Shown here: in pieces, positions 2,727-56,875 of the stretch
Layout of the letters: every line of letters starts with the position of its first letter
Numbering within the stretch: the first letter of the stretch is position 1
DNA from: an uncultured Bryobacteraceae bacterium
Lineage (GTDB): Bacteria > Acidobacteriota > Terriglobia > Bryobacterales > Bryobacteraceae
Direction: 5' to 3'
Assembly (NCBI GenBank): GCA_964245395.1
Contig: CAXTMN010000001.1
Span: 56,552-120,551, forward strand
DNA length: 64,000 nt
The notes under the pieces: model-generated
Database searches by the model: none
What the model saw: only the letters and a program-made list of their open reading frames with translations
Told to the model about the DNA's origin: nothing
Program-made: the position numbers and the translations under genes

Positions 2727-3167
2727 TTAGACTACTGATTTAGTGTTTGTGTTGTCACGCCGCGGCGTCGAACCGGTCCTACTTCTTGTGAGCGTATCTG
2801 AAAGCCGGTGTAGGATCTTCGACGTTTGGACGCCCTTGGTCAAAAGAAAACATCCCTTTGCAGCGAGATTATTCGCTTTCATAAGGTGCCGGACGATCTC
2901 TGCCTGCGTAGCACCTGGAACGATCACAAACCGCTTTTCATAGTCGTGGATCAGCAGCATTAACACGCCAACTAGCTCTTCTTGTTCAGGCGTGAGGTGG
3001 TCCTGGTTGACTAGTGTCTTTAGCAGCTCGATAAAACGCTCATTGTCCTCGTCGTCCCTGATGATGTGTGGCCGTGTCTGCATTAGTAGTGAGCCGTATG
3101 TCTCATTAATTGCGCTGTTCAGAAAACTCCCTGCTTCTCCTGCTCCCTTTTTTGACTTTTCTTCCAC
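2727..3167 (-). CDS. higA: HigA-type antitoxin (HTH)
   Basis: It lies downstream of the HigB-like ORF, which is the toxin-first order typical of higBA. The IIRDDEDNERFIELLKTL...VGVLMLLIHDYEKRF segment is typical of HigA partners of the HigB_toxin family. The true start may be the internal ATG at 3083, because the 3167 start overlaps higB by 49 nt. Confidence 0.65.
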   Translation of the reverse strand: MEEKSKKGAGEAGSFLNSAINETYGSLLMQTRPHIIRDDEDNERFIELLKTLVNQDHLTPEQEELVGVLMLLIHDYEKRFVIVPGATQAEIVRHLMKANNLAAKGCFLLTKGVQTSKILHRLSDTLTRSRTGSTPRRDNTNTKSVV

Positions 3168-3538
3168 TCATTCCGGTCGTACTCAGCATGCTTCATGAGC
3201 CGTTTGAAGAAAATCATCTTGTGTTGATAGTTGATCTGTACAACCAACCGGAACTGATTGCCGCAAATATTGAAGACCGTGTATATTCGACTCCCGATAG
3301 TGATGCCATCGGCATCTGGATAGATCTTTCGAATATCCTCCAGGCTGCCCCATTTCCGTTTTCGATGCAACTCTTTCTCATGAATCAACTTCAGTTGCTG
3401 CGGCCCGATGCTTGTTCTCTGAGCATGCCGCCACAGAGCCGAGATAGGCGCCGAAAGATCCTGATGCGGCATCCTGAGAATCAACGCCGTTGCACAAAGA
3501 ACCTGTTTGCAGTATTCGAGTTCCCGTGGATGTATCAC
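3119..3538 (-). CDS. higB: HigB-family toxin (RelE-fold mRNA interferase), N-terminus atypically long
   Basis: The C-terminal core VFNICGNQFRLVVQINYQHKMIFFKRLMKHAEYD matches the HigB_toxin signature (GN-x-YRL...THAEYD). The ORF is 139 aa versus about 100 aa typical. Its N-terminal part contains the 57-nt patch shared with 14193..14249. Confidence 0.7.
   Translation of the reverse strand: MIHPRELEYCKQVLCATALILRMPHQDLSAPISALWRHAQRTSIGPQQLKLIHEKELHRKRKWGSLEDIRKIYPDADGITIGSRIYTVFNICGNQFRLVVQINYQHKMIFFKRLMKHAEYDRNEWKKSQKREQEKQGVF
3434..3490. repeat. 57-nt patch, 56/57 identical to 14193..14249
   Basis: Manual alignment: cagagccgagataggc[g/a]ccgaaagatcctgatgcggcatcctgagaatcaacgccgt occurs at both sites in the same orientation. 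Confidence 0.9.
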
Positions 3539-3715: not shown

Positions 3716-4068
3716 TCACTGACGCCGATGCACCGGCTGAATCACCTAAGAAAAAGTGTTCTTTTCGATCGCAAAGCGGTCGAGCGAGATACGAAAAGGC
3801 TGCGAGTGGCTTGCGCATTCGCTTCACACACTCTCCCAAATTGAACGCCCCTCTGGAGCATTGGCAGCAAGACACTTTCGTGGCCCGGTGGCCCGACCGC
3901 TCCATGGATGCGGACGCCTACATCACCTTCTCGCTCAACCCCGACGGAACAATCGAAAGCGCCAAAATGAAGCCGGTCTCTCCGCTCACCGACTTCAGTT
4001 TCGACTTCCAGCATATAGCCCTAAAACCGGTGCCTAAAGACGCTGCCGCGTGGTAAGTGGCGGGATTT
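3716..4068 (+). pseudogene. internally deleted copy of the serine-hydrolase gene 5686..7350 (5' ~77 nt fused to 3' ~270 nt)
   Basis: 3716..3792 matches 5673..5750 (start region, MHRLNHLRK...). 3795..4068 matches 7089..7362 with about 4 mismatches (LRIRFTHSPKLNAPLEHWQQDTF...KPVPKDAA). The two parts are out of frame with each other. Confidence 0.85.
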
Positions 4069-4197
4069 CGCAGCCGGGTGATTGGTGAAATTCCGCCGAT
4101 TATTAGGAAACCCTTGGCGACCAAGCAGGAATAACCATACCTGGCTCTCAAAGGTCCCGTCGATCACCTGGATTTAGTAAGCGATACTCGGACTGTA

Positions 4198-4434
4198 GTG
4201 GCGCCAAGCGACACATCGTCGAAAGTGAACGAAGTCTACTTCCAACGACTTGGGGCAATGACTCCCGCCGAACGAGCACGCCTTGGTGCTGCGCTTTGGG
4301 AGGCTGGGCACGCTCTTCAATGGGCTGCGGCCCGCCGCAGGCATCCGGAGGCTGATGAGGCCGAGCTTGCATTTCACGTGGCAGTCACCCGTTTTGGAGC
4401 AGAACTGGCGCGAGCGGCTTATCGAAAGGCGTGA
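4198..4434 (+). CDS. small helical protein, putative partner/antitoxin of the downstream nucleotidyltransferase
   Basis: 78-aa ORF. Its stop overlaps the next start by 4 nt (ATGA), suggesting translational coupling. Confidence 0.5.
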   Translation: MAPSDTSSKVNEVYFQRLGAMTPAERARLGAALWEAGHALQWAAARRRHPEADEAELAFHVAVTRFGAELARAAYRKA

Positions 4435-5012
4435 TGGCGCCCGCCGACGCCTTCGACATCCTACGCGTCGCGCTGGAGCAAGCCAGGATTCGGTACGCAA
4501 TCGGAGGCTCCTGGGCGAGCACCGCTTTCGGTGAGCCTCGTTTTACAAATGATGTAGACATTCTGGCGGACGTGACGCCGGAAAATTTAGAGGTGTTTCT
4601 TCGCCATTTGCCCGCGACATTCTACGCCGACGGGGAGGAGGCACTCAACGCAATTGGCCGGGGCAGACCTTTCAATGTGATTCATATGCCCACGGTACTG
4701 AAGTTCGATCTGTTTCCTTCGAGTGCGTTCCCGATAGGCAGTGAAGAACTGAACCGCGCTGTTTTGTTGGAAGATACTGGGCTGTCGAAAGGGCCAGCGT
4801 GGTTCGTCACACCAGAGGACATTTTGCTCGCTAAATTGTATTGGTTCAAATTAGGCGGTGAGGTATCCGAGGTGCAATGGCGCGACATAACGGGCATTGT
4901 TCGCGCATGCTCTGCGACGCTCGATCGTGCATATCTCGAGCGTGCCGCCTCGCAGTTGGAGGTTTGCGCTATGCTGCACCGATCGCTTGGCCAATCTGAA
5001 CTGGACGGATAA
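4431..5012 (+). CDS. minimal nucleotidyltransferase-fold protein (MNT/DUF6036-like)
   Basis: YAIGGSWASTAFGEPRFTNDVDILAD fits the pol-beta NTase motif G-[GS]-x9-13-D-x-D. Length is 193 aa. Confidence 0.6.
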   Translation: MMAPADAFDILRVALEQARIRYAIGGSWASTAFGEPRFTNDVDILADVTPENLEVFLRHLPATFYADGEEALNAIGRGRPFNVIHMPTVLKFDLFPSSAFPIGSEELNRAVLLEDTGLSKGPAWFVTPEDILLAKLYWFKLGGEVSEVQWRDITGIVRACSATLDRAYLERAASQLEVCAMLHRSLGQSELDG

Positions 5013-5112
5013 ACTCGTGAGCGACGGCAGATGCAGTTTAATTGCGAGCGTCGTTCCGTATCTTCGATTACCAGATGTATCCTGGCAGAACTTGATCGGA
5101 GTCTTCTCTAAT

Positions 5113-5627
5113 GTGCAGACGGTTCTTCAATGCTTTTTGGTGGCCCTCTTAGCCGCCAGGTTGGACGCACAGTCGATATTGGAGAAGCTTAAACAGTCGG
5201 ATCATCCCCAAGGCTAGGAAGCGCTAGCGCACAGGGATCAGGTAAGCCTTGAAGGCGACGTGCGCTGGATCCAAGATCAACTTGGATTACACCGCCCTAC
5301 TCAGCTACTGCTCCTCGACGAGAAACATTGCATACTTTCCCTGGATTTCCCTATTCGTTTGCTGTTTCAGATGGTCGACAGGCACTGATCGTGGTTCCGG
5401 TGGATATCGGAAGCCTGGCATCTGGGGTGGAAGGATCCAAGGAATTGAGAGGGGATTTGATGCTGTTCCATGAGGCCGGACATATCTATGCCGATGCGGC
5501 CAAGTTAGAAAACATTCATGATGCGCTCACGGATTTGTATGCTGATCTTTTCGCTACATCGTACATTCGAGCAAAAGCGGCCGGATCTCTCCTCCGTTCT
5601 CAGGATAGGTCCGCCTGGAAAAGGTAA
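5113..5627 (+). pseudogene. decayed secreted HExxH (zinc-metallopeptidase-like) protein gene
   Basis: GTG start followed by a signal-like VQTVLQCFLVALLAARLDAQS. There is an in-frame TAG at 5215..5217 and a frame change near 5330. The downstream part carries LFHEAGHIY. Confidence 0.4.
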
Positions 5628-5685
5628 TCTGCCGCGGTTCTCTCGCCTGGTGGCGGGTCCCCTTCGCAATCGTCACTGACGCCAG

Positions 5686-7350
5686 ATGCACCGGCTGAAT
5701 CACCTAAGAAAAACTATTCTTTTCGATCGCAAAGCGGTCGAGCGAGATACTGTGCTGATAACTGCCAATCCATCCGGGCTACGGAGTACAAAATATGCGC
5801 CTCTCATCCAACTCTGCCTTTTTGCTCTAGCGGTCTTCCCCATATGCGCCCAAGAGTATCTCGACAAAGTCGTCGAACAAGCCCGCAAAGAATTCAACGT
5901 GCCCGGCATCGCGGTGGCCATAGTGAAGGACGGCAAAGTGGTTATAGAAAAGGGTTATGGCGTGCGCCGTCTCGGCAACCCTGCACCAATCACGACCCAT
6001 ACCATCTTCGGCATCGCTTCTAACACCAAGGTTTTCACCTCAGCCGCTCTCGCCATGCTTGTCGACGAAGGTAAACTCGCTTGGGACGACCGCGTCGTTG
6101 ACCGCCTTCCCGGCTTTCAAATGTCAGATGCCTACGTCACTCGTGAAATGCGCATTCGTGACCTGCTCTGTCATCGCAGCGGCCTCCCGTTAGGCGGCGG
6201 CGATCTTATGTTTTGGCCCGGCACTGACCTCACGTCTGATCAAGTAAATTACCGGCTTCGCTTCGTGCCGCTCGAGACAAGCTTCCGCAGCGCCTATGCT
6301 TATGACAACATTCTTTACAACGTCGCCGGCGCCGTCTTGAAGCAAGTGTCTGGCGAGTCATGGTCCGACTTCATCAAGGATCGCTTTTTCGCGCCGCTCA
6401 ACATGCACGACAGCAAGACCAGCATCCGCGACATTGATGATTCAACCGACGTTGTCGCGCCGCACGCCATGGTTGATGGCAAATTGCAAGCTGTTGCTCA
6501 TGGCTCGCTCGACAACAACGCACCCGCTGGCGCCATTGTGTCCTCTGTAGATGATATGAGCCGCTGGATGATGGTGCTGCTCAACAAGGGCGACCTGGGC
6601 AATGGCAAGCGTCTCTTAAGTGAAAAGCAAGCCCGCGTTCTATGGACACCGCTCACCATTCTCCCAGTAGGTGAGTCGCCCGCCGAACTCGTAGAAGTGC
6701 ATCCCTATTTCGCGGACTACGCCATGGGCGAAGTCCTGCGTGACTATCGCGGACATTTGCTCGTTTACCACACCGGCGGCCTGCAAGGCATGGTCAGTAT
6801 TGTGGCCATGTTGCCGGAGTTGCACGCCGGTGTCGTGGTTCTCACCAACCAGGAATCCGAAGCCGCCTTCCAATCTATCGCCGATACCGTGTTCGATCAT
6901 TACCTCCAAGCGCCGCCCAAAGACTGGGTAACCGCCATGGGTAAGGTGGTCAAGCGCCACATGGACGAAGCCGAGAAGACAGTGGCAGATGCTGGGTCTA
7001 AACGCGACGCGTCATCGAAGCCCTCAATTCCTCTCGATTCTTATGCCGGACGTTACCGCGATCCCTGGTATGGCGACGTCGTGATCGAAAAAGGTGCGAG
7101 TGGCTTGCGCATTCGCTTCACACACTCTCCTAAATTGAACGCCCCTCTGGAGCATTGGCAGCAAGACACTTTCGTGGCCCGGTGGCCCGACCGCTCCATG
7201 GATGCGGACGCCTACATCACCTTCTCGCTCAACCCCGACGGAACAATCGAAAGCGCCAAAATGAAGCCGGTCTCTCCGCTCACCGACTTCAGTTTCGACT
7301 TCCAGCATCTAGCCCTAAAACCGGTGCCTAAAGACGCTGCCCCGTGGTAA
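5686..7350 (+). CDS. beta-lactamase-family serine hydrolase with C-terminal DUF3471-like domain
   Basis: S-x-x-K motif in FGIASNTKVFTSAAL. N-terminal hydrophobic signal LCLFALAVFPICAQE. 554 aa. The true start is uncertain. Confidence 0.8.
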   Translation: MHRLNHLRKTILFDRKAVERDTVLITANPSGLRSTKYAPLIQLCLFALAVFPICAQEYLDKVVEQARKEFNVPGIAVAIVKDGKVVIEKGYGVRRLGNPAPITTHTIFGIASNTKVFTSAALAMLVDEGKLAWDDRVVDRLPGFQMSDAYVTREMRIRDLLCHRSGLPLGGGDLMFWPGTDLTSDQVNYRLRFVPLETSFRSAYAYDNILYNVAGAVLKQVSGESWSDFIKDRFFAPLNMHDSKTSIRDIDDSTDVVAPHAMVDGKLQAVAHGSLDNNAPAGAIVSSVDDMSRWMMVLLNKGDLGNGKRLLSEKQARVLWTPLTILPVGESPAELVEVHPYFADYAMGEVLRDYRGHLLVYHTGGLQGMVSIVAMLPELHAGVVVLTNQESEAAFQSIADTVFDHYLQAPPKDWVTAMGKVVKRHMDEAEKTVADAGSKRDASSKPSIPLDSYAGRYRDPWYGDVVIEKGASGLRIRFTHSPKLNAPLEHWQQDTFVARWPDRSMDADAYITFSLNPDGTIESAKMKPVSPLTDFSFDFQHLALKPVPKDAAPW

Positions 7351-7362
7351 GCGGCGGGATTT
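7089..7362. repeat. parent copy of the ~270-nt direct repeat shared with 3795..4068
   Basis: Manual alignment shows about 4 mismatches. Confidence 0.85.
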
Positions 7363-13809: not shown

Positions 13810-14415
13810 CTAAAGCTTTTGTGCTTTGCGGCGAAAGAGCGCAAGCACTCCGAGAGCCGGTGCGAGTAAGAGCAAGGTAGCGGGTTCGGGAGTTACTGAG
13901 CCGGTGCTGACACTTACATTGTCCAGGGAGAAGTAACCGAGATCGTTTTGTGAGGTGAACTGAAGCAGAGCTGAGTTGGCTGTACTCGAAGTAGACAACG
14001 TAAACGAATAAGGAGTGAACGATGACACGGGAGCATCGGTCTCAGAGAAAAATGTCTGTCCGCCGAAGGATGCCGAAAAGAGATTGGTAAAACCGGCAAG
14101 TGGAACCGAGTCTTGAGCGAGCGAGAAGCTGATGAAGTAGTAGTAGCCAGGCTGAACGGTGAGGGTCTGACTGAGGGTCAGGGGATTGAGCTCAGAGCCG
14201 AGATAGGCACCGAAAGATCCTGATGCGGCATCCTGAGAATCAACGCCGTAAAACTGTGACGCAAAGGGCGAACTAGTTACAAGTCCGGCCGTTGTCCAGC
14301 TAGTGAGATCGCCCGTTTCGAAGCCGCCATTGGTAACGAGCTCATCGCCGAAGACATTTTTGACGCCAAAGAATGCACAGACAATTACTGCCAAGATACC
14401 GACTTGCTTACACAT
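13810..14415 (-). CDS. PEP-CTERM sorting-domain protein
   Basis: N-terminal signal peptide. The C-terminus is VTPEPATLLLLAPALGVLALFRRK (PEP motif, TM, basic tail). Confidence 0.85.
   Translation of the reverse strand: MCKQVGILAVIVCAFFGVKNVFGDELVTNGGFETGDLTSWTTAGLVTSSPFASQFYGVDSQDAASGSFGAYLGSELNPLTLSQTLTVQPGYYYFISFSLAQDSVPLAGFTNLFSASFGGQTFFSETDAPVSSFTPYSFTLSTSSTANSALLQFTSQNDLGYFSLDNVSVSTGSVTPEPATLLLLAPALGVLALFRRKAQKL
14193..14249. repeat. 57-nt patch, 56/57 identical to 3434..3490
   Basis: See 3434..3490. Here it encodes YGVDSQDAASGSFGAYLGS of the PEP-CTERM protein. Confidence 0.9.
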
Positions 14416-24162: not shown

Positions 24163-24440
24163 TCATTCGAACAGTTGAAGCGTCTTGATCAGGCGGCAAG
24201 AGCAGCAGACTGATTTCGACGGCTTGGATAATAAAGGAAATAGCAGGGGAATGTTGGACACTAGTCCCCGTACTTGAACCAGGCGCTCATCTGCGATCAA
24301 CTCAGTAAAAGTTTCTTCGATCGCCGTTCCGATAACTACGCCGTTCAACACTGCTCGGATCACCAGGCCGGGATCGTCGAACGTCACGGGTCCTTGGGGA
24401 TTGACGGTGAGTGCCTTACGGACTTTCTCGAACTCCCACC
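24163..24440 (-). pseudogene. C-terminal fragment of a LysR-type regulator (substrate-binding domain)
   Basis: FDDPGLVIRAVLNGVVIGTAIEETFTELIADERLVQV resembles the LysR_substrate C-terminus. No HTH or N-terminal part is present. Confidence 0.5.
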
Positions 24441-24766
24441 GCGTCATCAGAACATCTCGACCGAGATAAGCTGCCTGGCTTCGCGTCTTTGATTGCGGCA
24501 GCGATCCCGGGGACATTCCGCGTGGCGATATCGCGCTCGTTTTTACTCAAGACGACGAGCGCGATCTTCCGGCCTTGCATGTTCTGTTGACACTGGATGT
24601 TCTTGTCCGCTGTCACCATCACGTCGAACCCGGCATCTTCCGCCGTTTTCAACAGTGCTCCGTTCGTCAGCGCATTCCATTTCTGATAGGCGACCGTACG
24701 TACATCATGGCCGGTGATCAGCGAGCGCAGGCGATGCGGCAGGTTCTCGTCGAGCAGGACGAGCAT
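24416..24766 (-). CDS. DUF5615 (PIN-like/Mut7-C) putative toxin
   Basis: MLVLLDENLPHRLRSLITGHDV...GFDVMVTADKNI. It sits directly after the DUF433 gene (TAG followed by ATG, 0-nt gap). Confidence 0.65.
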   Translation of the reverse strand: MLVLLDENLPHRLRSLITGHDVRTVAYQKWNALTNGALLKTAEDAGFDVMVTADKNIQCQQNMQGRKIALVVLSKNERDIATRNVPGIAAAIKDAKPGSLSRSRCSDDAVGVRESP

Positions 24767-24991
24767 CTAGCGCGGTGTCAGTGGATCGGCGCTGCGCGCG
24801 ACAAAATCCAGGACGCTGCGAACCTGCTCCCGCGTCACGGACGGAAATTCCTGCACGACCTCGCTGACATTGAGGTCTTTCAGGTTTTTGAAGATAGCTG
24901 ACACCGGCACCCGCGTCCCGCGAAATACCCATGCACCGCTGACTTTCCCCGGCACGCGTTCGAGCGCCGGACATTGCGACCAGTCAAGCAT
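24767..24991 (-). CDS. DUF433 putative antitoxin
   Basis: PGKVSGAWVFRGTRVPVSAIFKNL is DUF433-like. The start was chosen at ATG 24991, since the longer ORF to 25093 has no supporting features. Confidence 0.65.
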   Translation of the reverse strand: MLDWSQCPALERVPGKVSGAWVFRGTRVPVSAIFKNLKDLNVSEVVQEFPSVTREQVRSVLDFVARSADPLTPR

Positions 24992-25601
24992 GGTTTGGCG
25001 TCTCCTTCCTTTTCCGATACTAGCGGAACTCTCGGGACCGCGCGATAGAGGACACAAGGGTCCTTTATGACACCCATAGTGTCCGGAATTCAATCGGTGA
25101 AGCGCAGGAAAATGATCTTCTCCGACACGGCATCAAGCTCCAACTCAGCCCGGAGCGATTGCCGGAGATCAAAAAGTAAGTCATCGAGCGATGAAGTGCG
25201 TTTCGTTGCTATCTCGAAAGCGAATTGCCTTGCCAACGACACTTGGCGGAGAGAGCCGAGCAACTGAATATCAGCGATAGCAGACGTAAAATCAGGCCGA
25301 CACCGGTTTGTATCATCCCGGTTTGCCCGCTCCTTCAAGCCTCCTATATGCCTCCAAGAGATAACTAACTGGCAGCTTTCGACGTTCACCGGCTAGGTCT
25401 CGACGCATTGAGAGGTGATGACCATACCATCCACCAAGTCCGGCAACCGCGAGGGTAACAGCCAACTGCGCAAAAAGCTTCCAGTCCATGTTGTCCGATC
25501 ATTCCATACCTGCCATGTCCCACAAAGGGTGAGTTTTGCCCTGTACCCTGCGGCCAATGTTTCAAGCCTCTTACAGGCCATAACGCACGACCTAATCAGG
25601 C

Positions 25602-49640: not shown

Positions 49641-51320
49641 ATGGAGACAATTAGGCTGTTGTGGGTGATGGTCGATTCCCGGTTTCTTGGCGCATGTCTG
49701 GCGTTATTTCTTGCCGGGGCGAGTCGGACTCAGGATCTCCAGACAAGATTCGATCAACGAGGGATTGCCCGGCTTTCTTACCGGGGCGCTGTACTGGTCG
49801 ATCTGGATAGCGGAGTGGGCGATGCTTTCTCGGTAGGCGGCTTCAAATTAGGGGATAAGTCCGGCGGTTGGGGTGCAAACGGGAAGAAAGCTGAATGGAA
49901 CGCCGCTGACCAGGTACTGACCTGGACGTGGGACTGGGGCAGCATTCGCTGTCGCTTTGAGGCACCTTCGAAAAAGGACGAGTTACGGCTCAAGATTGCG
50001 ATTGAGAACAAGAGCGCGCAAGATCTTCAAGAGATCAATGTGTATCCGCTGGGGTTGATGTTCCCGCAGCTGCCGAGCGGTTTCGGCGCTGCAAATTACC
50101 CGCAGTTTCGTAATAATCTACAGGGACCTGCGGTTCTGGAAGCTGACTATGGGTCGGGAGCGATGGTGCTAGCGAATGAGGATGCGAAGCCACTGTATGT
50201 GGGACTGAGTCCGTCGGGTCCGGCAAATCATTACCAGATACAGATTGGGACGGCAAACGACTCCAGCGAGGGATATTTGGCCAAAGCTGTGCCGCTAAAT
50301 CGGAGGGTATTCGCGGGCAAAACGGAAGAGTTCAGCGTGGTGCTCCGATTTGCACTTTCAGGGACGAAGGCGCAAGTACTGGCGGGGGACATCTTTAAAA
50401 GTTATGGCCAAGCCTGGCCGCAGACTTTGAAGTGGGACGACCGGAGGCCGATTGGAGAACTCTTCATGACCAATCCGACGACTGCTCCCCTTTCGGGTGC
50501 GAGCGCGAATCCGAGAAATTACACGGTTGCAAAGGGAACTGACATTAGAACGCCGGAAGGGGTAGCGACGTTTCGAGAATGCGTTATGCGGTACGCCGAG
50601 AACGCAGTGAGGATCTTGAAAAACATGAATGCGCAGGGCGCAATCGTGTGGGATTTGGAGGGCCAGCAGTTTCCGCAGCCGGATACGAGCTATGTCGGAG
50701 ACCCGCGACAACTGGCAAAGCTATCACCTGAAATGGACAGCGTTGCGGATGCGTTTTTCAAGACGTTCACGAGTGCCGGACTAAAGTGCGGACTGACGAT
50801 CCGGCCACAAGAGCTGGATTTCTCGGCGAGTACTCCAGTCCAAAAGGACGTAGCTGCGGGTCAGCAATCCGCATCGCTGATAGTAAAGATGAGTTACGCC
50901 CGTAAGCGGTGGGGCTGCACAATCTTCTATGTTGACTCTAATGGAGGACCGCTGGACGCGACTGCGCCGGCTGTTTTTGGCCAGGTGCAGAAAGCCTTGC
51001 CGGACGTGCTGGTGATTCCGGAGAATACCTGGCCGAAAGATCATGCGTACACCGCGCCGCTAGCAAGTTTCACCGCGCCCTACAAGCCTCTCCATACGCC
51101 GGCGGAGGTTCAGGCGATCTGGCCGCATGCCTTTACGGTGACCTATGTTGGCGATGCTCCAAACGGGGATCTCAAGAGCAATCCCAAGAATCCGGGGCAA
51201 TGGGCCGAGTTTGTCAGTGCTGTTAAGAAGGGTGACATTCTAACGTTTCGGGCGTGGTTCGATGATTCGGTGCTGAATCGGCAGGTGCGTGAGATTTATG
51301 CAGAGGCAGGCCGGCGGTAA
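49641..51320 (+). CDS. secreted hypothetical protein (possible TIM-barrel glycosidase-like C-terminal half)
   Basis: 559-aa ORF with the signal-like FLGACLALFLAGASRTQD. No firm motif. Its last ~30 nt belong to the 360-bp direct repeat. Confidence 0.5.
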   Translation: METIRLLWVMVDSRFLGACLALFLAGASRTQDLQTRFDQRGIARLSYRGAVLVDLDSGVGDAFSVGGFKLGDKSGGWGANGKKAEWNAADQVLTWTWDWGSIRCRFEAPSKKDELRLKIAIENKSAQDLQEINVYPLGLMFPQLPSGFGAANYPQFRNNLQGPAVLEADYGSGAMVLANEDAKPLYVGLSPSGPANHYQIQIGTANDSSEGYLAKAVPLNRRVFAGKTEEFSVVLRFALSGTKAQVLAGDIFKSYGQAWPQTLKWDDRRPIGELFMTNPTTAPLSGASANPRNYTVAKGTDIRTPEGVATFRECVMRYAENAVRILKNMNAQGAIVWDLEGQQFPQPDTSYVGDPRQLAKLSPEMDSVADAFFKTFTSAGLKCGLTIRPQELDFSASTPVQKDVAAGQQSASLIVKMSYARKRWGCTIFYVDSNGGPLDATAPAVFGQVQKALPDVLVIPENTWPKDHAYTAPLASFTAPYKPLHTPAEVQAIWPHAFTVTYVGDAPNGDLKSNPKNPGQWAEFVSAVKKGDILTFRAWFDDSVLNRQVREIYAEAGRR

Positions 51321-51678
51321 CCAGGCCGGTCCGATCGTGCCGGTCCGATCGTGCCGGTCCGATCGTGCCCGTCCTAGGAAGCGATCCACAGATGGCTACC
51401 AAAATGAGGCGAGTTCTCATGGTCCATAGGGAGGCAAAACAGGCAAATAGCTGGTAGAATTATCACCAACCTCGTTCTCGGCTCCATTTTGGTTATCATC
51501 GTGCACTTGAGGTGAGCGGCACGAGAAGGAATGTTCCGGCCTGAGCGCTTTCGCCCTTCGGCCCCAGGTTGATTCAAGTTTGTCCGATGCGCATTTGTCC
51601 CGCTTGTAATGCTCCCAATATGGACGGTGTCCTTGCCTGTGAGAGCTGTAGTTCTACCCTGCCTCCTGATGCAGACAC
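51291..51678. repeat. direct repeat copy 1 (360 bp + two extra 14-bp units)
   Basis: By manual comparison it is identical to 54184..54543 except for the 14-bp tandem expansion. Confidence 0.9.
51326..51367. repeat. 3 x 14-bp tandem repeat ccggtccgatcgtg
   Basis: Three perfect units here versus one unit in the other repeat copy (about 54219..54232). Confidence 0.9.
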
Positions 51679-51709
51679 AGTCGTCCGGGTCGCCGGATCG
51701 AGACCCTGA
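51587..51709 (+). pseudogene. duplicated 5' stub of the Ser/Thr kinase gene
   Basis: Encodes MRICPACNAPNMDGVLACESCSSTLPPDADTV, identical to the start of 54452..56875, then diverges and stops. Confidence 0.8.
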
Positions 51710-51842
51710 CGAATCGCCTCAAACTGCTCCAACTGCACTTCCCCGGCCAGGCCCAGCATCTCGGCTCCATGGCCCAGCCACTGGCCCAATAACTTCCTCG
51801 TTCTGGGCGTAGTAGTCGTTGGCTGCTAATGCTGCGAAGCAT
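51679..51842 (-). pseudogene. MobF/TrwC-type relaxase N-terminal remnant
   Basis: Spread over three frames: MLRSISS..., AANDYYAQNEEVIG, QWLGHGAEMLGLAGEVQLEQFEAIRQGLDP. This matches the relaxase N-terminal pattern YY...G-x-W-x-G-x-GA-x2-LGL-x-G-x-V. It is cut off at the repeat junction. Confidence 0.55.
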
Positions 51843-51900
51843 ACGTCGCTCCTCTGGTCAAAGCGCGGATCGAAGCGCGGATCGTCAGCACAGGTTTCCA

Positions 51901-52233
51901 TTACCGACCGAAGAACGTGCCCGGATCCGGACCGAAGGAGCCATCCGGAAAGCGGCGCCGGGGCAAAGGAGGGATAGTCATTCCAAATTTTTGATGCCAG
52001 CGGGTCCAGGCCTCTCCGGTAAAAACGCCACTCGGCGCATGCTCGAGGGCGTTCCGGAATTCGCTTTCGGGAATGTATTGCTCGACAACGGCTACATCGC
52101 TGGCCGATCCGTACACCATCAGGTGAACCAGTAGCGTCGGCAGATCTTGCAGAGTGTGTTCGGGGGCGTTGAACCAAACTACTTTGCGGGCAATGCGGAG
52201 TAACTCGGGCGGATAAGGCTGGGGCAAGGTCAT
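51901..52233 (-). CDS. hypothetical protein coupled to the AbiEii-like gene
   Basis: 110-aa ORF. Its ATG overlaps the upstream stop (ATGA). No motif recognised. Confidence 0.5.
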   Translation of the reverse strand: MTLPQPYPPELLRIARKVVWFNAPEHTLQDLPTLLVHLMVYGSASDVAVVEQYIPESEFRNALEHAPSGVFTGEAWTRWHQKFGMTIPPLPRRRFPDGSFGPDPGTFFGR

Positions 52234-52932
52234 TGGGTTTTCCCCTCCGTGGTGAAACCGGATTGAGCGGGCAAACTGGGCAAGTGGGCGACATTCACTT
52301 GCTGAGCCCTGCGGGCCAGGTCGCGTTGCATCGCTTTCGGAACTTGAGCCAGGGTGCCATCTCCAAAGAACTGTAAAGCCCGGATACTGAGGGCGGGAGA
52401 AAAGCGAGAGTCGATAGCGCGAGCGGCGGCCAAAGCTGTAGGAAAGTCAATGCCATGGGTGGCTAAGGCATGAAGATCGACGTAATCTTTCCAGCTGCCC
52501 CGGACTTGAACCACGCGCATTTTCATACCGGCCAGGTCCACTAGGGAAGCAACTTGCATCTGCGAACCTGTGGGACGACGGGGATTTTCTACCCGCCGCA
52601 AGGTATCAAGGCCACCGAAGAAGGCGAGTTTGACCGGAGCTTCCGCGACGCTCAACATACCCTTCCAGGTTGTTTGCTTTGTAGTGAACCCAATTCGTAG
52701 AAGTGCTCTTATCGAGCGAGCGAAAGAAAGGAAGACGCGCATGCAGCTGATCCGGGTGGAAGCCTAGGGAGGAGAAAAAATCAAAATCTTTCGAGATCCG
52801 ATGGCCCAGCTGTAAAGCGAGTGCCGTTCCACCGTAAAGCACAAATTCCGCCGGCACAGTATCCAGCTCGGGCCAAAGTGCCCGTTGCGAAGCAGGCAAA
52901 ATCTCTAGCCGGGGCGAGAAGGAGACACTCAT
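52230..52932 (-). pseudogene. AbiEii/AbiGii-family nucleotidyltransferase toxin gene, one frameshift
   Basis: N-terminal part: EFVLYGGTALALQLGHRISKDFDFF (52932 down to about 52700). C-terminal part in another frame: ...VQVRGSWKDYVDLHALA... (52742..52230). Confidence 0.65.
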
Positions 52933-53030
52933 CGGCAATCCGGAGCGAGAGCCATGCCGCAGTATAGCCGACTGTAGAAGCAATGTAAGAGAAAAAACAC
53001 TGTCATCCGTTGAAAGTGTAACCTGGAATC

Positions 53031-54103
53031 GTGCTGCGCTTGGGTGGCGGGCTTTTCTACGACACGGGACTTGGGTCAATCATCGATCCAGTGAACGCTT
53101 CGCCCTTCTCCACGTGGCGGTACGCACCCTCTCCTGCTGCTGCGGTACCGCCCGGTTCGGGCGAAAGCATTCCAGTACCCAAACTGAAACTGCCGCAAAT
53201 CATTGAATGGCGAACATCGATCAGCAAATCCGTCGGTGAGAGTTTGCAGTTTTCACTTGCCTATCTCGGATCGTCCGGCCGTTCTCTCCTGAGGCAGGAG
53301 GCGAAATTTTACAATCGGTCGTCTACACCAGTTTTGCGCGGTCGAATTATCAAGCTCTGCAAGCTCAATATACCGGTCATATCACCTCCAAGCTGTACGC
53401 GCTACTGTCCTATACTTGGGCACATTCGATCGACACTGGTTCCCAGAGCTCTTCGGTATTTCTAGACTTTCCCGGGTATAACGATCACAATGATCGAGGT
53501 TCATCCAGCTTCGATCTGCGCCATCAATTTAACGGGTCTTTCACTTATCAGCTACCCTCGTTCTCGAAGGCCGGGCGCGCTAACTTGTGGTCAAAAGGAT
53601 GGAATCTCAGCAGTACCGTGCAGGCCCATACCGGCTTCCCGTTCGATGTCACGACGGTAGACAGATCGCTGGGACTCGGGTTTGCGAACAGCAAACGGCC
53701 TGATCTCGTTTACGGTCAGCCTCTGTGGATTGCGAACAACGCCGTTCCGGGCGGCCGAGAGTTGAACGCGACTGCTTTCCAAGCTACATCGGGTGCCGTC
53801 TCGGGCACGCTGGGAAGAAATGTGCTGACAGGAAGCGGCTTGTTTCAAATCGATGCAAGCTTGCGGCGACAATTGCGCTTGTACCGGGCGAGTTCTCTGG
53901 AATTCAGTGCGACGGCGTTTAACTTATCCAACCAGGCGAGCTTTTCAAATCCAGTCAGCTATCTCGGGAGCGCCCTGTTCGGCCGTCCAATCTCTATGCA
54001 GAGCCTGATGCTTGGGTCGGGCAGCCCCACGACCGGTCTCACCCCGCTTTTCCAGTCGGGCGGCCCACGAACGGTCGAGTTGAGTGTAAAATTCAACTTT
54101 TAA
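53031..54103 (+). pseudogene. 3' fragment of a large TonB-dependent-receptor-like outer-membrane protein gene, frameshifted
   Basis: LRLGGGLFYDTG..., NYQALQAQYTGHITSKLYALLSYTWAHSIDTGS..., and the terminal ...GGPRTVELSVKFNF are typical of the C-terminal barrel of Acidobacteria-type receptors of about 1100 aa. Only about 350 codons remain, with a frame change near 53300. Confidence 0.65.
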
Positions 54104-54183
54104 GGTGTCTTAGCCCAGTCGACCCAAGTCAAATTTGCAGAACTTGACAGCACAACTTTCAGGTTTTCCCGTTCTTAAAACGG

Positions 54184-54543
54184 GAGATTTATGCAGAGGC
54201 AGGCCGGCGGTAACCAGGCCGGTCCGATCGTGCCCGTCCTAGGAAGCGATCCACAGATGGCTACCAAAATGAGGCGAGTTCTCATGGTCCATAGGGAGGC
54301 AAAACAGGCAAATAGCTGGTAGAATTATCACCAACCTCGTTCTCGGCTCCATTTTGGTTATCATCGTGCACTTGAGGTGAGCGGCACGAGAAGGAATGTT
54401 CCGGCCTGAGCGCTTTCGCCCTTCGGCCCCAGGTTGATTCAAGTTTGTCCGATGCGCATTTGTCCCGCTTGTAATGCTCCCAATATGGACGGTGTCCTTG
54501 CCTGTGAGAGCTGTAGTTCTACCCTGCCTCCTGATGCAGACAC
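54184..54543. repeat. direct repeat copy 2 (360 bp)
   Basis: See 51291..51678. Confidence 0.9.
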
Positions 54544-56875
54544 CGTTGTCCAGGACGACGACGGGCAACTCACGATAGCTGCTGTATTTACGGCGCCGTT
54601 ATCTTCTCCGGCCGCTGCTGCTGCAGCTCAGCGGGCATTTAGCGCGCTCGTTCCCGGAGATGTGCTTTGCGACCGGTACGAAATTGTCGAACGGCTGGGT
54701 CAAGGCGGAATGGGAAGCGTGTACAAGGCCATGGACCAGGAACTGGAGCGGTTCGTCGCACTGAAGACCGTCCGTCCCGATCTTGCTTCGAATGCCGGCA
54801 TGCTGCGGAGGCTGAAGCAGGAGATTCTGCTGGCGCGGAAGGTAACCCATCCGAACGTCATTCGCATACACGACATTGGCGTAGCCGACGGGCTCCGTTT
54901 TATTACGATGGAGTACTTCGAAGGCTCCGATCTTGGCTCTCATTTATATAAGAACCGGAAGCTTGGGTCTGCGGAATCGACGGGTATTGTGCGCCAGATC
55001 TGCGACGGGTTGGCTGCGGCGCACAAGCAGGGTGTCATCCATCGGGATTTGAAGCCGCAGAATGTGCTGATCAATGAACGCGGGGAAATTCGAATACTCG
55101 ATTTCGGACTGGCCCGTTCCGTCGAGTCGCCCAACCTGACACGCAGCGGCATGCTGGTGGGAACGCCGAATTATATGTCGCCCGAGCAAGCCACGGGCGA
55201 TCCGGTCGATGTTCAGTCAGATATCTACGCTGTGGGCTTGATGTGGTACGAGATGTTGACGGGCGCTTTACCGTTTAAGGGCGAGACTTCGATGGCCCGG
55301 CTTGTGGAACGTACAGTAAAGCCCGTGACGCCCCCCGGAGAGGTCGAGCCCGACATTCCGCAACACGTAAGCGACGTAATCATGCGGTGTCTTGAGATCG
55401 ACCCTGCGTGCCGTTATGGAAGCGTAACAGAGCTTATCGGAGCTCTTCGGAGTTGGGATTCGGGCACTCCGGGCCAAGGCGTACCCCGACCTGCGCTGGG
55501 GTTGTCTACGCTGCCTGTTATAGCGCCCCCGACTGACTTTGTTGCCGTCGTCCCGCTGCGCCCAGGGTTCCTCAGTGTGACTACTATGGCGGTTGCCATT
55601 GCCTGCCTTGCAGTGGCGTGTCTTGGCGTGGCGAGTTTTATTGTCTTGAAGTCTCGCGCCCATAGGGGGCCGGACCTTGCCGAATCACAGCAGTCAATCA
55701 ATCCTCAAGCGAATGAACTCATCCTTGAAGGACGGAATATCCTGGGGCATCACCGCGATCAGGCCAATGTGAGTGCGTCGTTAGAGAAGTTTCGGGAGGC
55801 GCTCAATAAGGATGGGAATGCCGTGTTGGCCTGGACAGGGATCGCCGATGGCAGCCTGGAAATGCTACGGATCACTCGCGATAGCATATGGGCAGCAAAG
55901 GCTTACGACGCCGCACGGCAGGCCCAGAGCCGGAACAGCAACCTGCCGGAAGTTCATTTTGCCCTCGGAAGTGTTTATGTTCAACAGGGCAAGGCAGGCG
56001 AGGCTGTTGCCCAGATTAAGCAGGGATTAGCGGTCCAGAAGGATTCCGACGATGGATACATGCGGCTGGGCAAAGCGTACCTGGCGTTGAACAAGCCGGA
56101 TGAAGCGATCAGCGCCTACAAACATGCGGTAGAGCTTAGCAAGTACAGCCAATATACGCACGATGCTTTAGCAAAGGCTTACCTGAAACTGGGGCGCAAC
56201 CACGAAGCTTTGAAGGAGTTCGAGCAGGAGCTCGATATCCGGCCGAATGACGCGAGTGTTCATAACGCGATGGGTGTTATTTACTCTCGCCAAAGCCGCT
56301 GGGACAAAGCCCTGGAGGAATTTAAGCTAGCCGCAAGCAATGTCAAACCGTCCGCTTCCGCTTACTCCAATCTCGGCAGCGCGTACTTTTATCTGGGGCG
56401 GTACCCGGATGCTATCCGGATGTGCCAACAGGCGATTGCTATTAATCCGAACAGTGCTCTCTTTATGGGGAACCTTGCTGACGCTTATCGACAAGCAAAG
56501 CAATACGAAAAAGCTCAACTTCGATACACACGCGCCATTGAACTCGCTTCCGATCAGCTCGACACGGACCCCAAAGACGCCGGTACGCTGGCGCTCCTGG
56601 CTTTGTATTATGCGAGGAAAGGTGGCAGGGCTGGTGTCGAGAAGGGTGAGGATTACATCCAGAAGGCGCGGGAAATAGATGCCCGCAACAACGAACTTAT
56701 GTATGACCAAGCGATTGTTTTGGCTTTGGACGGAAAAGTTGAGGAGTCGTGCGCGGCTCTAAAAGAAGCTTTGAATCACGGCTTCTCTTTAGGACAAGCA
56801 GTGGCCGAGCCGGATCTGGCGCGCGTTCGAGCGTTGCCTTCGTTTCCGGCTCTTTTGAAAACCATCAACAGCTAA
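54452..56875 (+). CDS. Ser/Thr protein kinase with N-terminal zinc-ribbon, one TM helix and C-terminal TPR domain
   Basis: CPACN...CESC; GQGGMGSVYKA; VALK; HRDLKPQNVLI; DFGLAR; TM helix MAVAIACLAVACLGVASFIVL; multiple TPR units. Confidence 0.9.
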   Translation: MRICPACNAPNMDGVLACESCSSTLPPDADTVVQDDDGQLTIAAVFTAPLSSPAAAAAAQRAFSALVPGDVLCDRYEIVERLGQGGMGSVYKAMDQELERFVALKTVRPDLASNAGMLRRLKQEILLARKVTHPNVIRIHDIGVADGLRFITMEYFEGSDLGSHLYKNRKLGSAESTGIVRQICDGLAAAHKQGVIHRDLKPQNVLINERGEIRILDFGLARSVESPNLTRSGMLVGTPNYMSPEQATGDPVDVQSDIYAVGLMWYEMLTGALPFKGETSMARLVERTVKPVTPPGEVEPDIPQHVSDVIMRCLEIDPACRYGSVTELIGALRSWDSGTPGQGVPRPALGLSTLPVIAPPTDFVAVVPLRPGFLSVTTMAVAIACLAVACLGVASFIVLKSRAHRGPDLAESQQSINPQANELILEGRNILGHHRDQANVSASLEKFREALNKDGNAVLAWTGIADGSLEMLRITRDSIWAAKAYDAARQAQSRNSNLPEVHFALGSVYVQQGKAGEAVAQIKQGLAVQKDSDDGYMRLGKAYLALNKPDEAISAYKHAVELSKYSQYTHDALAKAYLKLGRNHEALKEFEQELDIRPNDASVHNAMGVIYSRQSRWDKALEEFKLAASNVKPSASAYSNLGSAYFYLGRYPDAIRMCQQAIAINPNSALFMGNLADAYRQAKQYEKAQLRYTRAIELASDQLDTDPKDAGTLALLALYYARKGGRAGVEKGEDYIQKAREIDARNNELMYDQAIVLALDGKVEESCAALKEALNHGFSLGQAVAEPDLARVRALPSFPALLKTINS

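Follow-up and report, generated by a model that had tools for sequence, protein, structure and literature searches.

A toxin-antitoxin-like cassette between long direct repeats of host sequence at a synteny breakpoint in an uncultured Bryobacteraceae bacterium

How does a short patch of mostly dead genes come to lie between two identical copies of the chromosomal sequence that borders it? The question is raised by a locus of an uncultured Bryobacteraceae bacterium, a soil acidobacterium (assembly GCA_964245395.1), located within a stretch of 64,000 nucleotides of contig CAXTMN010000001.1 (positions 56,552 to 120,551), hereafter the window. Two direct repeats, B1 (51291-51678, 388 bp) and B2 (54184-54543, 360 bp), here bracket an insert of 2505 bp (51679-54183), which contains a relaxase remnant, a two-gene cassette of the AbiEii type and the 3' end of a receptor gene. 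The locus is a real scar of an insertion into the chromosome, at a high-turnover spot where two conserved gene blocks meet. It is a fairly ordinary recombination scar and not a fresh plasmid integration, and it adds one more case to a known kind of rearrangement.

The two copies, both read on the forward strand, align without a single mismatch, and their sole difference is a change in length of 28 bp in a 14-bp tandem repeat (GCCGGTCCGATCGT), of which B1 holds 3.6 units (51325-51374) and B2 holds 1.6 units (54218-54239). The perfect match of 326 nt between them cannot have arisen by chance, and only two families of direct repeats of at least 250 nt are present in the whole window. Each copy is composed of the last 30 nt of a gene that we call gene G, including its stop codon, followed by the whole intergenic region and by the 5' end of a gene for a serine/threonine protein kinase, which is represented by its first 92 nt when counted from the ATG at 54452 (110 nt from the TTG at 54434). 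B2 runs on into the intact kinase gene. B1, with its intergenic region, kinase promoter and codons 1-31 of the kinase gene, leads into a stub open reading frame (ORF) of 40 codons (51587-51709, forward strand), in which kinase codons 1-31 are followed by antisense relaxase sequence. This stub, which together with the duplicated promoter region before it spans 51452-51709, is zinc-ribbon-like (MRICPACN...CESC).

The repeats are located where two gene blocks meet. The left block runs from AroDE to gene G (49641-51320, forward strand), its last gene, which encodes 559 amino acids and belongs to no Pfam family. The right block starts with the kinase gene (54452-56875, forward strand; Pfam Pkinase, E 4e-56; with TPR repeats) and continues with genes for a PEP-CTERM protein, IspD, IspF, ABC-F, BrkB and BamA. 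Only the two nearest relatives were informative for comparison, L027 (76% DNA identity) and L028 (73-79%), with L029 sharing the layout of L028. L027, whose gene G product shows 82% amino acid identity, is collinear from AroDE through G, and its homology ends precisely with the G stop codon. In L028 and L029, collinearity with the window runs from position 54317, which is 117 nt upstream of the kinase and inside B, to the window end; the kinase shows 78% amino acid identity to their homologue (P0122), the downstream synteny is kept, and the genes found upstream of this point in L028 and L029 are absent from the window. Because the homology of L027 ends at G, and that of L028 and L029 starts inside B, the insert is placed at a synteny breakpoint, with B being the junction of the two blocks. 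G and the kinase gene are not adjacent in either nearest relative. Of B, L028 has the 227 nt on the kinase side and L027 the 30 nt on the G side, each as a single copy. A scan of the genome collection with G returned relatives at 58-63% identity only, without synteny.

The homology of L028 to B begins at an extended -10-like box (TGGTAGAAT; 51452-51460 in the duplicate and 54317-54325 in the copy before the intact kinase, forward strand), which is conserved as TGGTAAAAT in L028. This box is presumably an element of the kinase promoter, with the copy at 54317-54325 probably being the functional one. The duplicated promoter in B1 points antisense to the relaxase remnant, orf110 and AbiEii, and it could drive an antisense RNA across the cassette. 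On the other side of the breakpoint, the sequence that follows the G stop codon in L027 (2041-2762) is unrelated and contains a degraded ORF with a weak RepA_C match (19.3 bits, against a Pfam cut-off of 26 bits), which is only suggestive; foreign DNA may have landed repeatedly in the 3' flank of G. Members of the gene G family are about 550 amino acids long, have no Pfam domain and are widespread in Acidobacteriota, Armatimonadota, Planctomycetota, Bacteroidota and Verrucomicrobiota, some of them being fused to Ig-like, beta-helix or HEAT domains.

What lies between the repeats? Next to B1 the insert carries a remnant of a MOBF (TrwC-type) relaxase gene (51688-51891, reverse strand), which begins at its true start codon (GTG, 51891-51889) and reaches codon 64; two frameshifts interrupt it, and 12 bp of it are duplicated in tandem (51861-51884). 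Its Pfam TrwC match covers positions 15-59 of 286 (E 3e-10), and the NCBIfam MobF and relax_trwC matches are both below the cut-offs. Full-length relatives, once aligned, begin MLTIRALTGGATYASQHLSANDYY, followed by ..GQW.GRGAE.LGL.GEV..EQF.A.RQGLDP.TGE.., and beyond codon 64, where the remnant meets B, the similarity to them is lost. A site of recurrent recombination around codon 64 was considered for this split and rejected: several short database proteins that lose similarity there look like frameshifted or fragmentary gene calls. The joint J1 (51679-51695) is a 17-nt patch in which 12 of the 17 positions match the kinase (binomial P about 2e-4), and it overlaps the last relaxase codons (D P A T, 51699-51688). 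The first 9 nt past the perfect block can be read as kinase codons that differ by two synonymous changes. A further site at J1 is polymorphic, with CGG in the window and CAG in the sister-strain contig L031 described below; the kinase itself has CAG in the window and CGG in L028. J1 can be taken either as an illegitimate junction whose microhomology is patchy or as the last part of a kinase allele that has diverged, and by itself it cannot discriminate between the explanations weighed below.

The centre of the insert is occupied by a gene for an AbiEii/DUF1814-type nucleotidyltransferase (52230-52932, reverse strand), a pseudogene here owing to a 1-nt insertion at about 52636 (+1 frameshift), and by its intact partner gene orf110 (51901-52233, reverse strand), which encodes 110 amino acids, overlaps the AbiEii gene through an ATGA and is translationally coupled to it. 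The frame-corrected AbiEii product matches Pfam AbiEii (PF08843) with an E of 1.8e-16, compared with 8.6e-17 for the intact allele of 233 amino acids in L031; the PADLOC match to AbiEii is weak (E 4e-4). Towards B2 follows the 3' fragment of a TonB-dependent receptor gene (53031-54103, forward strand), covering the last 40% or so of the barrel (Pfam OMP_b-brl_4, positions 499-827 of 838, E 4.5e-49), with a frameshift near 53303-53315 such that two frames are needed to read it. The 80 nt past the receptor stop codon (54104-54183) end at the joint J2, between 54183 and 54184, where at most 2 nt show similarity to the G sequence beside the joint. The kinase stub, relaxase, AbiEii and receptor ORFs should accordingly be annotated as pseudogenes. 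The frameshifts in the insert represent true decay and not sequencing noise, because the adjacent kinase block of about 10 kb shows no sign of frameshifting: three long alignments show it to be collinear with L028, and its ORFs are still full-length, whereas the insert needs frame correction in three genes.

This anatomy largely agrees with an initial annotation of the locus. The alignments bear out its repeat pair, identical outside the 14-bp array, the content given for each copy (the end of G, the intergenic region and 92 nt of the kinase gene), the 40-codon kinase stub ending B1 and the resemblance to the kinase that persists past the perfect block. Six-frame translation together with Pfam recovered the three components listed for the insert, namely the TrwC/MobF stub, the frameshifted AbiEii gene with an ORF of 110 codons, and the 3' part of a receptor gene. 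The length difference, placed in the 14-bp array there as well, amounts to two units and not one. Several details needed correction. The N-terminal relaxase stub is itself twice frameshifted and has the 12-bp tandem duplication; and the receptor piece, described as the 3' third of the gene, is nearer 40% of the barrel domain and also frameshifted. The insert was rightly called a mosaic of plasmid-like and chromosomal fragments; the AbiEii-orf110 pair, found mostly in chromosomal contexts, is not specifically plasmid-like.

Is the arrangement an assembly product? The contig L031 (ENA ERZ22860156, 1500 bp, about 2x coverage), the one other contig on record with the exact orf110 protein, matches window positions 53127-51616 at 98.2%. 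It carries the joint between the receptor fragment and AbiEii, an intact AbiEii gene of 233 codons, an identical orf110 protein and the relaxase remnant, which shares both frameshifts but lacks the 12-bp duplication, followed by J1 and by 63 nt of B, where the contig ends. Since the L031 allele is intact, the AbiEii gene of the window has one extra base near 52636; and since this independent record shares both, the mosaic and J1 are not the product of one assembly. J2 and both links between a repeat and its flank are seen in the window contig alone, which is 140,523 bp long and evidently of metagenome type, and L031 breaks off after 63 nt of the repeat, the way contigs end where a repeat is unresolved. 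The chromosome might accordingly read G-B-kinase, with the insert and one B forming a small circle or the arrangement of another strain in a mixed population, and the assembler having threaded the insert into the contig through the 326-bp identical stretch; a graph of G-B-kinase with a loop of B and insert equals G-B-insert-B-kinase unless reads span it. We consider such an artefact improbable. Besides the confirmation of J1 and of the internal joint by L031, the B copies differ in their number of repeat units, which implies distinct molecules or places and not one sequence used twice. J1 and J2 require either a duplication or a circle of 2.9 kb, and a circle of this size lacking a replication gene is unlikely to persist. 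An analogous older duplication (97-98% identical) is moreover present 47 kb away, where misassembly is no issue.

The comparison with L031 also helps to date the event. The two sequences differ by 13 substitutions in 1512 nt (0.86% of sites), and because both strains share them, the mosaic and J1 are older than the strain split. If the duplication were as old as the split and neutral, about 3.1 differences would be expected between B1 and B2; none is observed (P 0.045, a value that is less extreme if copy 2 is constrained). Either the duplication is somewhat younger than the mosaic, or the copies have been lightly homogenised, as these counts suggest. The initial proposal of an event that was recent or homogenised is consistent with the lack of differences between the repeats, but very recent it was not, the joints being shared with L031 at 0.86% divergence.

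What kind of DNA is the core of the insert? We found 184 homologues of orf110, about 110 amino acids long and with 64-75% identity, and in every context examined, including L030-L034, the gene is placed directly downstream of an AbiEii gene encoding about 233 amino acids. The pair occurs in various chromosomal neighbourhoods, mostly of Bryobacteraceae, and also on the conjugative MOBF plasmid pACMV1 of Acidiphilium, while the DNA similarity among cassettes is confined to window positions 51902-52923. Because the pair recurs in unrelated contexts and the similarity ends at the cassette, the insert has at its core an autonomous module of two genes that resembles a toxin-antitoxin system, and not plasmid backbone. 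The gene upstream of AbiEii varies between contexts; here just 98 nt separate AbiEii from the receptor fragment, and they hold a promoter-like site (CTTACA-17-TATACT, 52961-52989, reverse strand) whose match to the consensus is not above shuffle expectation. No common cassette boundary can be defined, because the upstream regions of the AbiEii cassettes do not align.

The module resembles the AbiE and MenAT systems (Dy et al. 2014, PMC3985639; Cai et al. 2020, PMC7450476; Xu et al. 2023, PMC10435456) in its DUF1814/AbiEii nucleotidyltransferase of about 233 amino acids, its compact overlapping two-gene operon, its scattered, patchy distribution and its toxin-first decay, as expected for an addiction module. 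It differs in its partner gene: no antitoxin of a known family (AbiEi/COG5340 or MenA type) is found upstream of AbiEii, and the conserved partner is the downstream orf110, whose product is unrelated to AbiEi. Orf110 has no match in Pfam (including the Rv0078B-related antitoxin family), NCBIfam, PADLOC or the PDB sequences. Its AlphaFold model is confident (predicted local distance difference test, pLDDT, of 88) and all-helical, with six helices, and no PDB fold matches it. Orf110 is thus a candidate for a new antitoxin family, and AbiEii is here a candidate toxin that orf110 may neutralise. In the window the toxin gene is frameshifted while the partner remains intact and identical in protein sequence in both strains; such decay of the toxin first would fit a role of orf110 as antitoxin.

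Which mechanism, then, placed this module between two copies of B? No rep gene and no recombinase or integrase was found by Pfam in the main ORFs of 43.9-57.4 kb or, beyond these, among the called genes of the syntenic L028, and there is no tRNA in the window. No Rfam family was found and no terminal inverted repeats lie at the insert ends, no GC anomaly sets the insert apart, no plasmid DNA in PLSDB matches it, and the window holds no parent copy of any of its fragments. A transposon or insertion sequence does not fit a locus with no transposase domain, no inverted repeats at the insert ends and a duplication of 360 bp, nor does an integrative conjugative or mobilisable element fit one with no recombinase found, no tRNA and a relaxase cut to codons 1-64. 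Direct repeats that include a gene end do flank many genomic islands, and with a relaxase remnant present at a synteny breakpoint the 360-bp segment could be seen as attL and attR of an integrative mobilisable element that entered by site-specific integration and was mostly deleted later. We regard this as highly improbable. Besides lacking an integrase and a tRNA in the searches just described, the locus has a repeat that is far longer than the usual att cores and identical throughout, and its relaxase is cut exactly at the repeat border, which fits an illegitimate join and not a recombinase core.

A closer parallel is provided by insertion with long target duplication, a term from Nobusato et al. 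2000, as cited in Furuta, Abe and Kobayashi 2010 (Nucleic Acids Res 38:2428, PMC2853133). In the latter study, repeats of 46-423 bp surround restriction-modification addiction modules that lack mobility genes; the mechanism is left open, and a cycle is proposed in which the module uses the repeats to invade, amplify and be released. The present locus likewise has a small addiction-type module between long direct duplications of local host sequence, without mobility genes of its own, and its 360-bp repeats fall within the reported range and overlap gene ends. As in the definition used by Furuta et al. 2010, repeats longer than 30 bp (360 bp) flank an insert shorter than 20 kb (2505 bp), the only mobility-related sequence being a dead relaxase stub. 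The differences concern the described class, which comprises restriction-modification systems and is defined against an empty site in a sister genome. Here the module is a toxin-antitoxin-like cassette, no such empty site was found, and the insert adds relaxase and receptor pseudogene fragments. Because a nucleotidyltransferase cassette replaces the complete restriction-modification system, we consider the locus an analogue, and not a member of the class as originally defined.

One way to obtain this structure needs no circle at all. During replication or break repair, the nascent strand would have left the kinase gene at codon 31-34, copied the stretch from relaxase to AbiEii, switched to the 3' end of the receptor gene via microhomology and returned 360 bp behind its point of departure; in a variant, widely staggered breaks were filled in and filler DNA was captured. 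Such a one-step duplication and insertion would do without a replicon-less circle, and it agrees with several features of the locus: both repeat ends are illegitimate joints, J1 shows patchy identity between the partners (12/17), the insert is made of at least three unrelated truncated pieces in different orientations, and no recombinase, inverted repeats or att-like features were found. The mechanism of insertion with long target duplication was likewise left open in PMC2853133. However, J2 has almost no microhomology, and the internal joints could have formed earlier and elsewhere. The relaxase and receptor pieces moreover carry frameshifts, shared or strain-specific, while the repeats are without substitution, and for this reason the insert pieces were probably degraded and joined before the duplication. 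On balance, template switching seems rather unlikely.

Two further candidates were tried and rejected. The 30-nt G end in B2 might be the remnant of a tandem G paralogue, since L002 and L013 have two G-family copies (the second copy in L002 being part of a 1275-amino acid fusion protein), but this leaves the kinase stub in B1 unexplained. Homology-facilitated illegitimate recombination normally yields an insertion with a deletion (PMC3240628); a duplication would need pairing across sister chromosomes, and this route was judged unlikely.

The explanation that we prefer, as a tentative one that may well prove wrong, combines a degraded mobile-element mosaic that had captured B, its entry by one homologous crossover and its retention through the addiction cassette. 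DNA borne by a mobile element, already a degraded mosaic, would have captured the resident 360-bp segment by illegitimate joins at J1 and J2. As a circle, this patch would have entered the resident locus by one reciprocal homologous crossover of the Campbell type, leaving one repeat on gene G and the other on the intact kinase gene with its promoter, formally an insertion with long target duplication. The cassette would be lost if RecA looped out the sequence between the repeats, and post-segregational killing would select against this loss for as long as the toxin was active; such selection would explain the persistence of a repeat-flanked structure. Later erosion in this strain would have frameshifted the toxin gene, with the partner gene still intact.

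Campbell-type integration by a single crossover, in the style of F-prime or suicide plasmids, is the textbook model for such a topology, and it was the one put forward in the initial annotation. The topology does fit a single reciprocal crossover: two direct homologous copies flank the insert, each continuous with one chromosomal flank (B1 with the L027-collinear G, B2 with the L028-collinear kinase block), and a truncated stub gene on one side faces an intact gene with its promoter on the other. The likeness ends with the insert, which is only 2.5 kb long, consists mostly of dead genes and has no replicon found, no oriT or functional relaxase and no vector-like backbone, so that the circular partner is hypothetical. 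Because long target duplication and template switching give the same topology, the Campbell crossover is one candidate and not a demonstrated cause. The companion claim, that the circle was a plasmid or mobilisable-element remnant carrying this chromosomal segment, fared less well, as no replicon was found, the relaxase is a dead remnant of 64 codons and PLSDB gave no match. The full-length relaxase and the parent receptor gene that it led one to expect did not come to light either: there is no parent copy in the window, no plasmid match, and no receptor relative in a metagenome search with the receptor fragment. Nor did relatives lacking the insert provide the expected comparison: no empty site was found, and G and the kinase gene are non-adjacent in the two nearest.

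A number of observations weigh against the explanation that we prefer. The insert holds nothing able to replicate, transfer or recombine, and neither a circular form nor a parent plasmid was found in PLSDB, among the JGI metagenomes (no match to an exact 29-mer from the repeat) or by exact-sequence look-ups of G, the kinase (with three start choices), P0001 and the receptor ORF, none of which gave a match. A replicon-less circle of 2.9 kb could only have been a transient intermediate at most. The whole 360 bp occurs as one unit in no available genome, and no genome with an uninterrupted G-B-kinase site was found; because G and the kinase gene are not neighbours in the relatives, the single-copy ancestral state of the segment is assumed and not seen. 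J2, and the way in which each repeat copy connects to its flank, are known from one assembly. That the cassette stabilised the structure is something that we infer, like the circular intermediate and the single crossover, and Belot et al. (2026, Mol Biol Evol, PMC13617665) report that toxin-antitoxin systems keep no long-term chromosomal neighbourhood. An additional example of bracketing, a PIN cassette in L032, is better explained by the remnant of a third tandem paralogue and was not counted.

Does the same geometry occur elsewhere? We count three instances, namely window positions 51291-54543, window positions 3727-7362 and positions 4937-6561 of L033. In the second, the segment 3727-4068 repeats, with an internal deletion and at 97-98% identity, a serine-hydrolase gene (Beta-lactamase and DUF3471 domains; 5686-7350). 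It joins the initial 66 nt of the 5685-7362 region to the final 277 nt and is located 1.6 kb upstream of the full gene. The spacer between the two copies carries a nucleotidyltransferase toxin-antitoxin cassette (4198-5012), made of a MenA1-like antitoxin gene (4198-4434; Pfam Rv0078B, E 4e-6) coupled to a MenT1-like nucleotidyltransferase gene (4431-5012; 193 amino acids; PDB 8AN4, E 0.004). In L033, a Bryobacteraceae metagenome-assembled genome (JBPCOQ010000180.1), a fragment of about 137-145 nt from the 3' part of an RDD-family gene, 96% identical, lies upstream of an AbiEii-orf110 cassette, together with a 43-nt fragment of the orf110 3' end, and the intact RDD-family gene follows just downstream. 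No direct repeats of at least 30 nt were found in the 21-kb control, L028. These instances give a hint that duplicated host sequence recurrently brackets toxin-antitoxin cassettes of the nucleotidyltransferase type.

From here one could go further and propose that such cassettes enter and stay in Bryobacteraceae chromosomes through insertion with long target duplication, in a cycle without a recombinase such as has been hypothesised for restriction-modification modules. The cassette would arrive flanked by duplicated host sequence, loop out as a circle with one host homology arm and, by a single crossover, enter naive genomes of the same species again, with the toxin penalising cells that lose it. 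We hold this generalisation to be quite doubtful. A side claim that goes with it is that orf110 may constitute a new antitoxin family with a new fold, as judged from its predicted structure.

The surroundings of the MenA1/MenT1-like cassette contain further pieces of this kind. It adjoins a gene for a HigB-like toxin (Pfam HigB_toxin, E 5e-19) and the likely partner gene of the latter (2727-3538), and just upstream of it lies a 57-nt fragment (3434-3490) that is 98% identical to window positions 14193-14249, within a PEP-CTERM protein gene (13810-14415). Host-gene debris seems to gather around toxin-antitoxin cassettes. Two small adjacent ORFs at 24416-25093 (reverse strand) resemble by eye a DUF433-type antitoxin and a DUF5615/PIN-like toxin, and they are located in a 2.5-kb stretch without long ORFs (about 24.0-26.5 kb). 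The window as a whole appears rich in toxin-antitoxin cassettes.

How chromosomal toxin-antitoxin cassettes enter and are retained is still described as unclear by Belot et al. (PMC13617665), who model an entry via mobile elements into high-turnover spots, followed by streamlining and pseudogenisation of the toxin. The locus resembles that model in having a mobile-element remnant next to the cassette, a high-turnover location, streamlined linked genes and a toxin gene that is a pseudogene in one strain and intact in the sister strain; it differs in phylum and in the type of toxin-antitoxin system, and long target duplications are not mentioned in the passages of that paper that were searched. 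The locus thus offers a dated snapshot, in which the cassette is still attached to the relaxase remnant of the element that probably carried it, at a synteny breakpoint, within the bracket of a long target duplication, and with its toxin intact in one strain and frameshifted in the sister strain. If the bracket proves to be general, the life cycle of long target duplication would extend from restriction-modification modules to a second class of addiction genes, which would then have a recombinase-free route of spread within a species.

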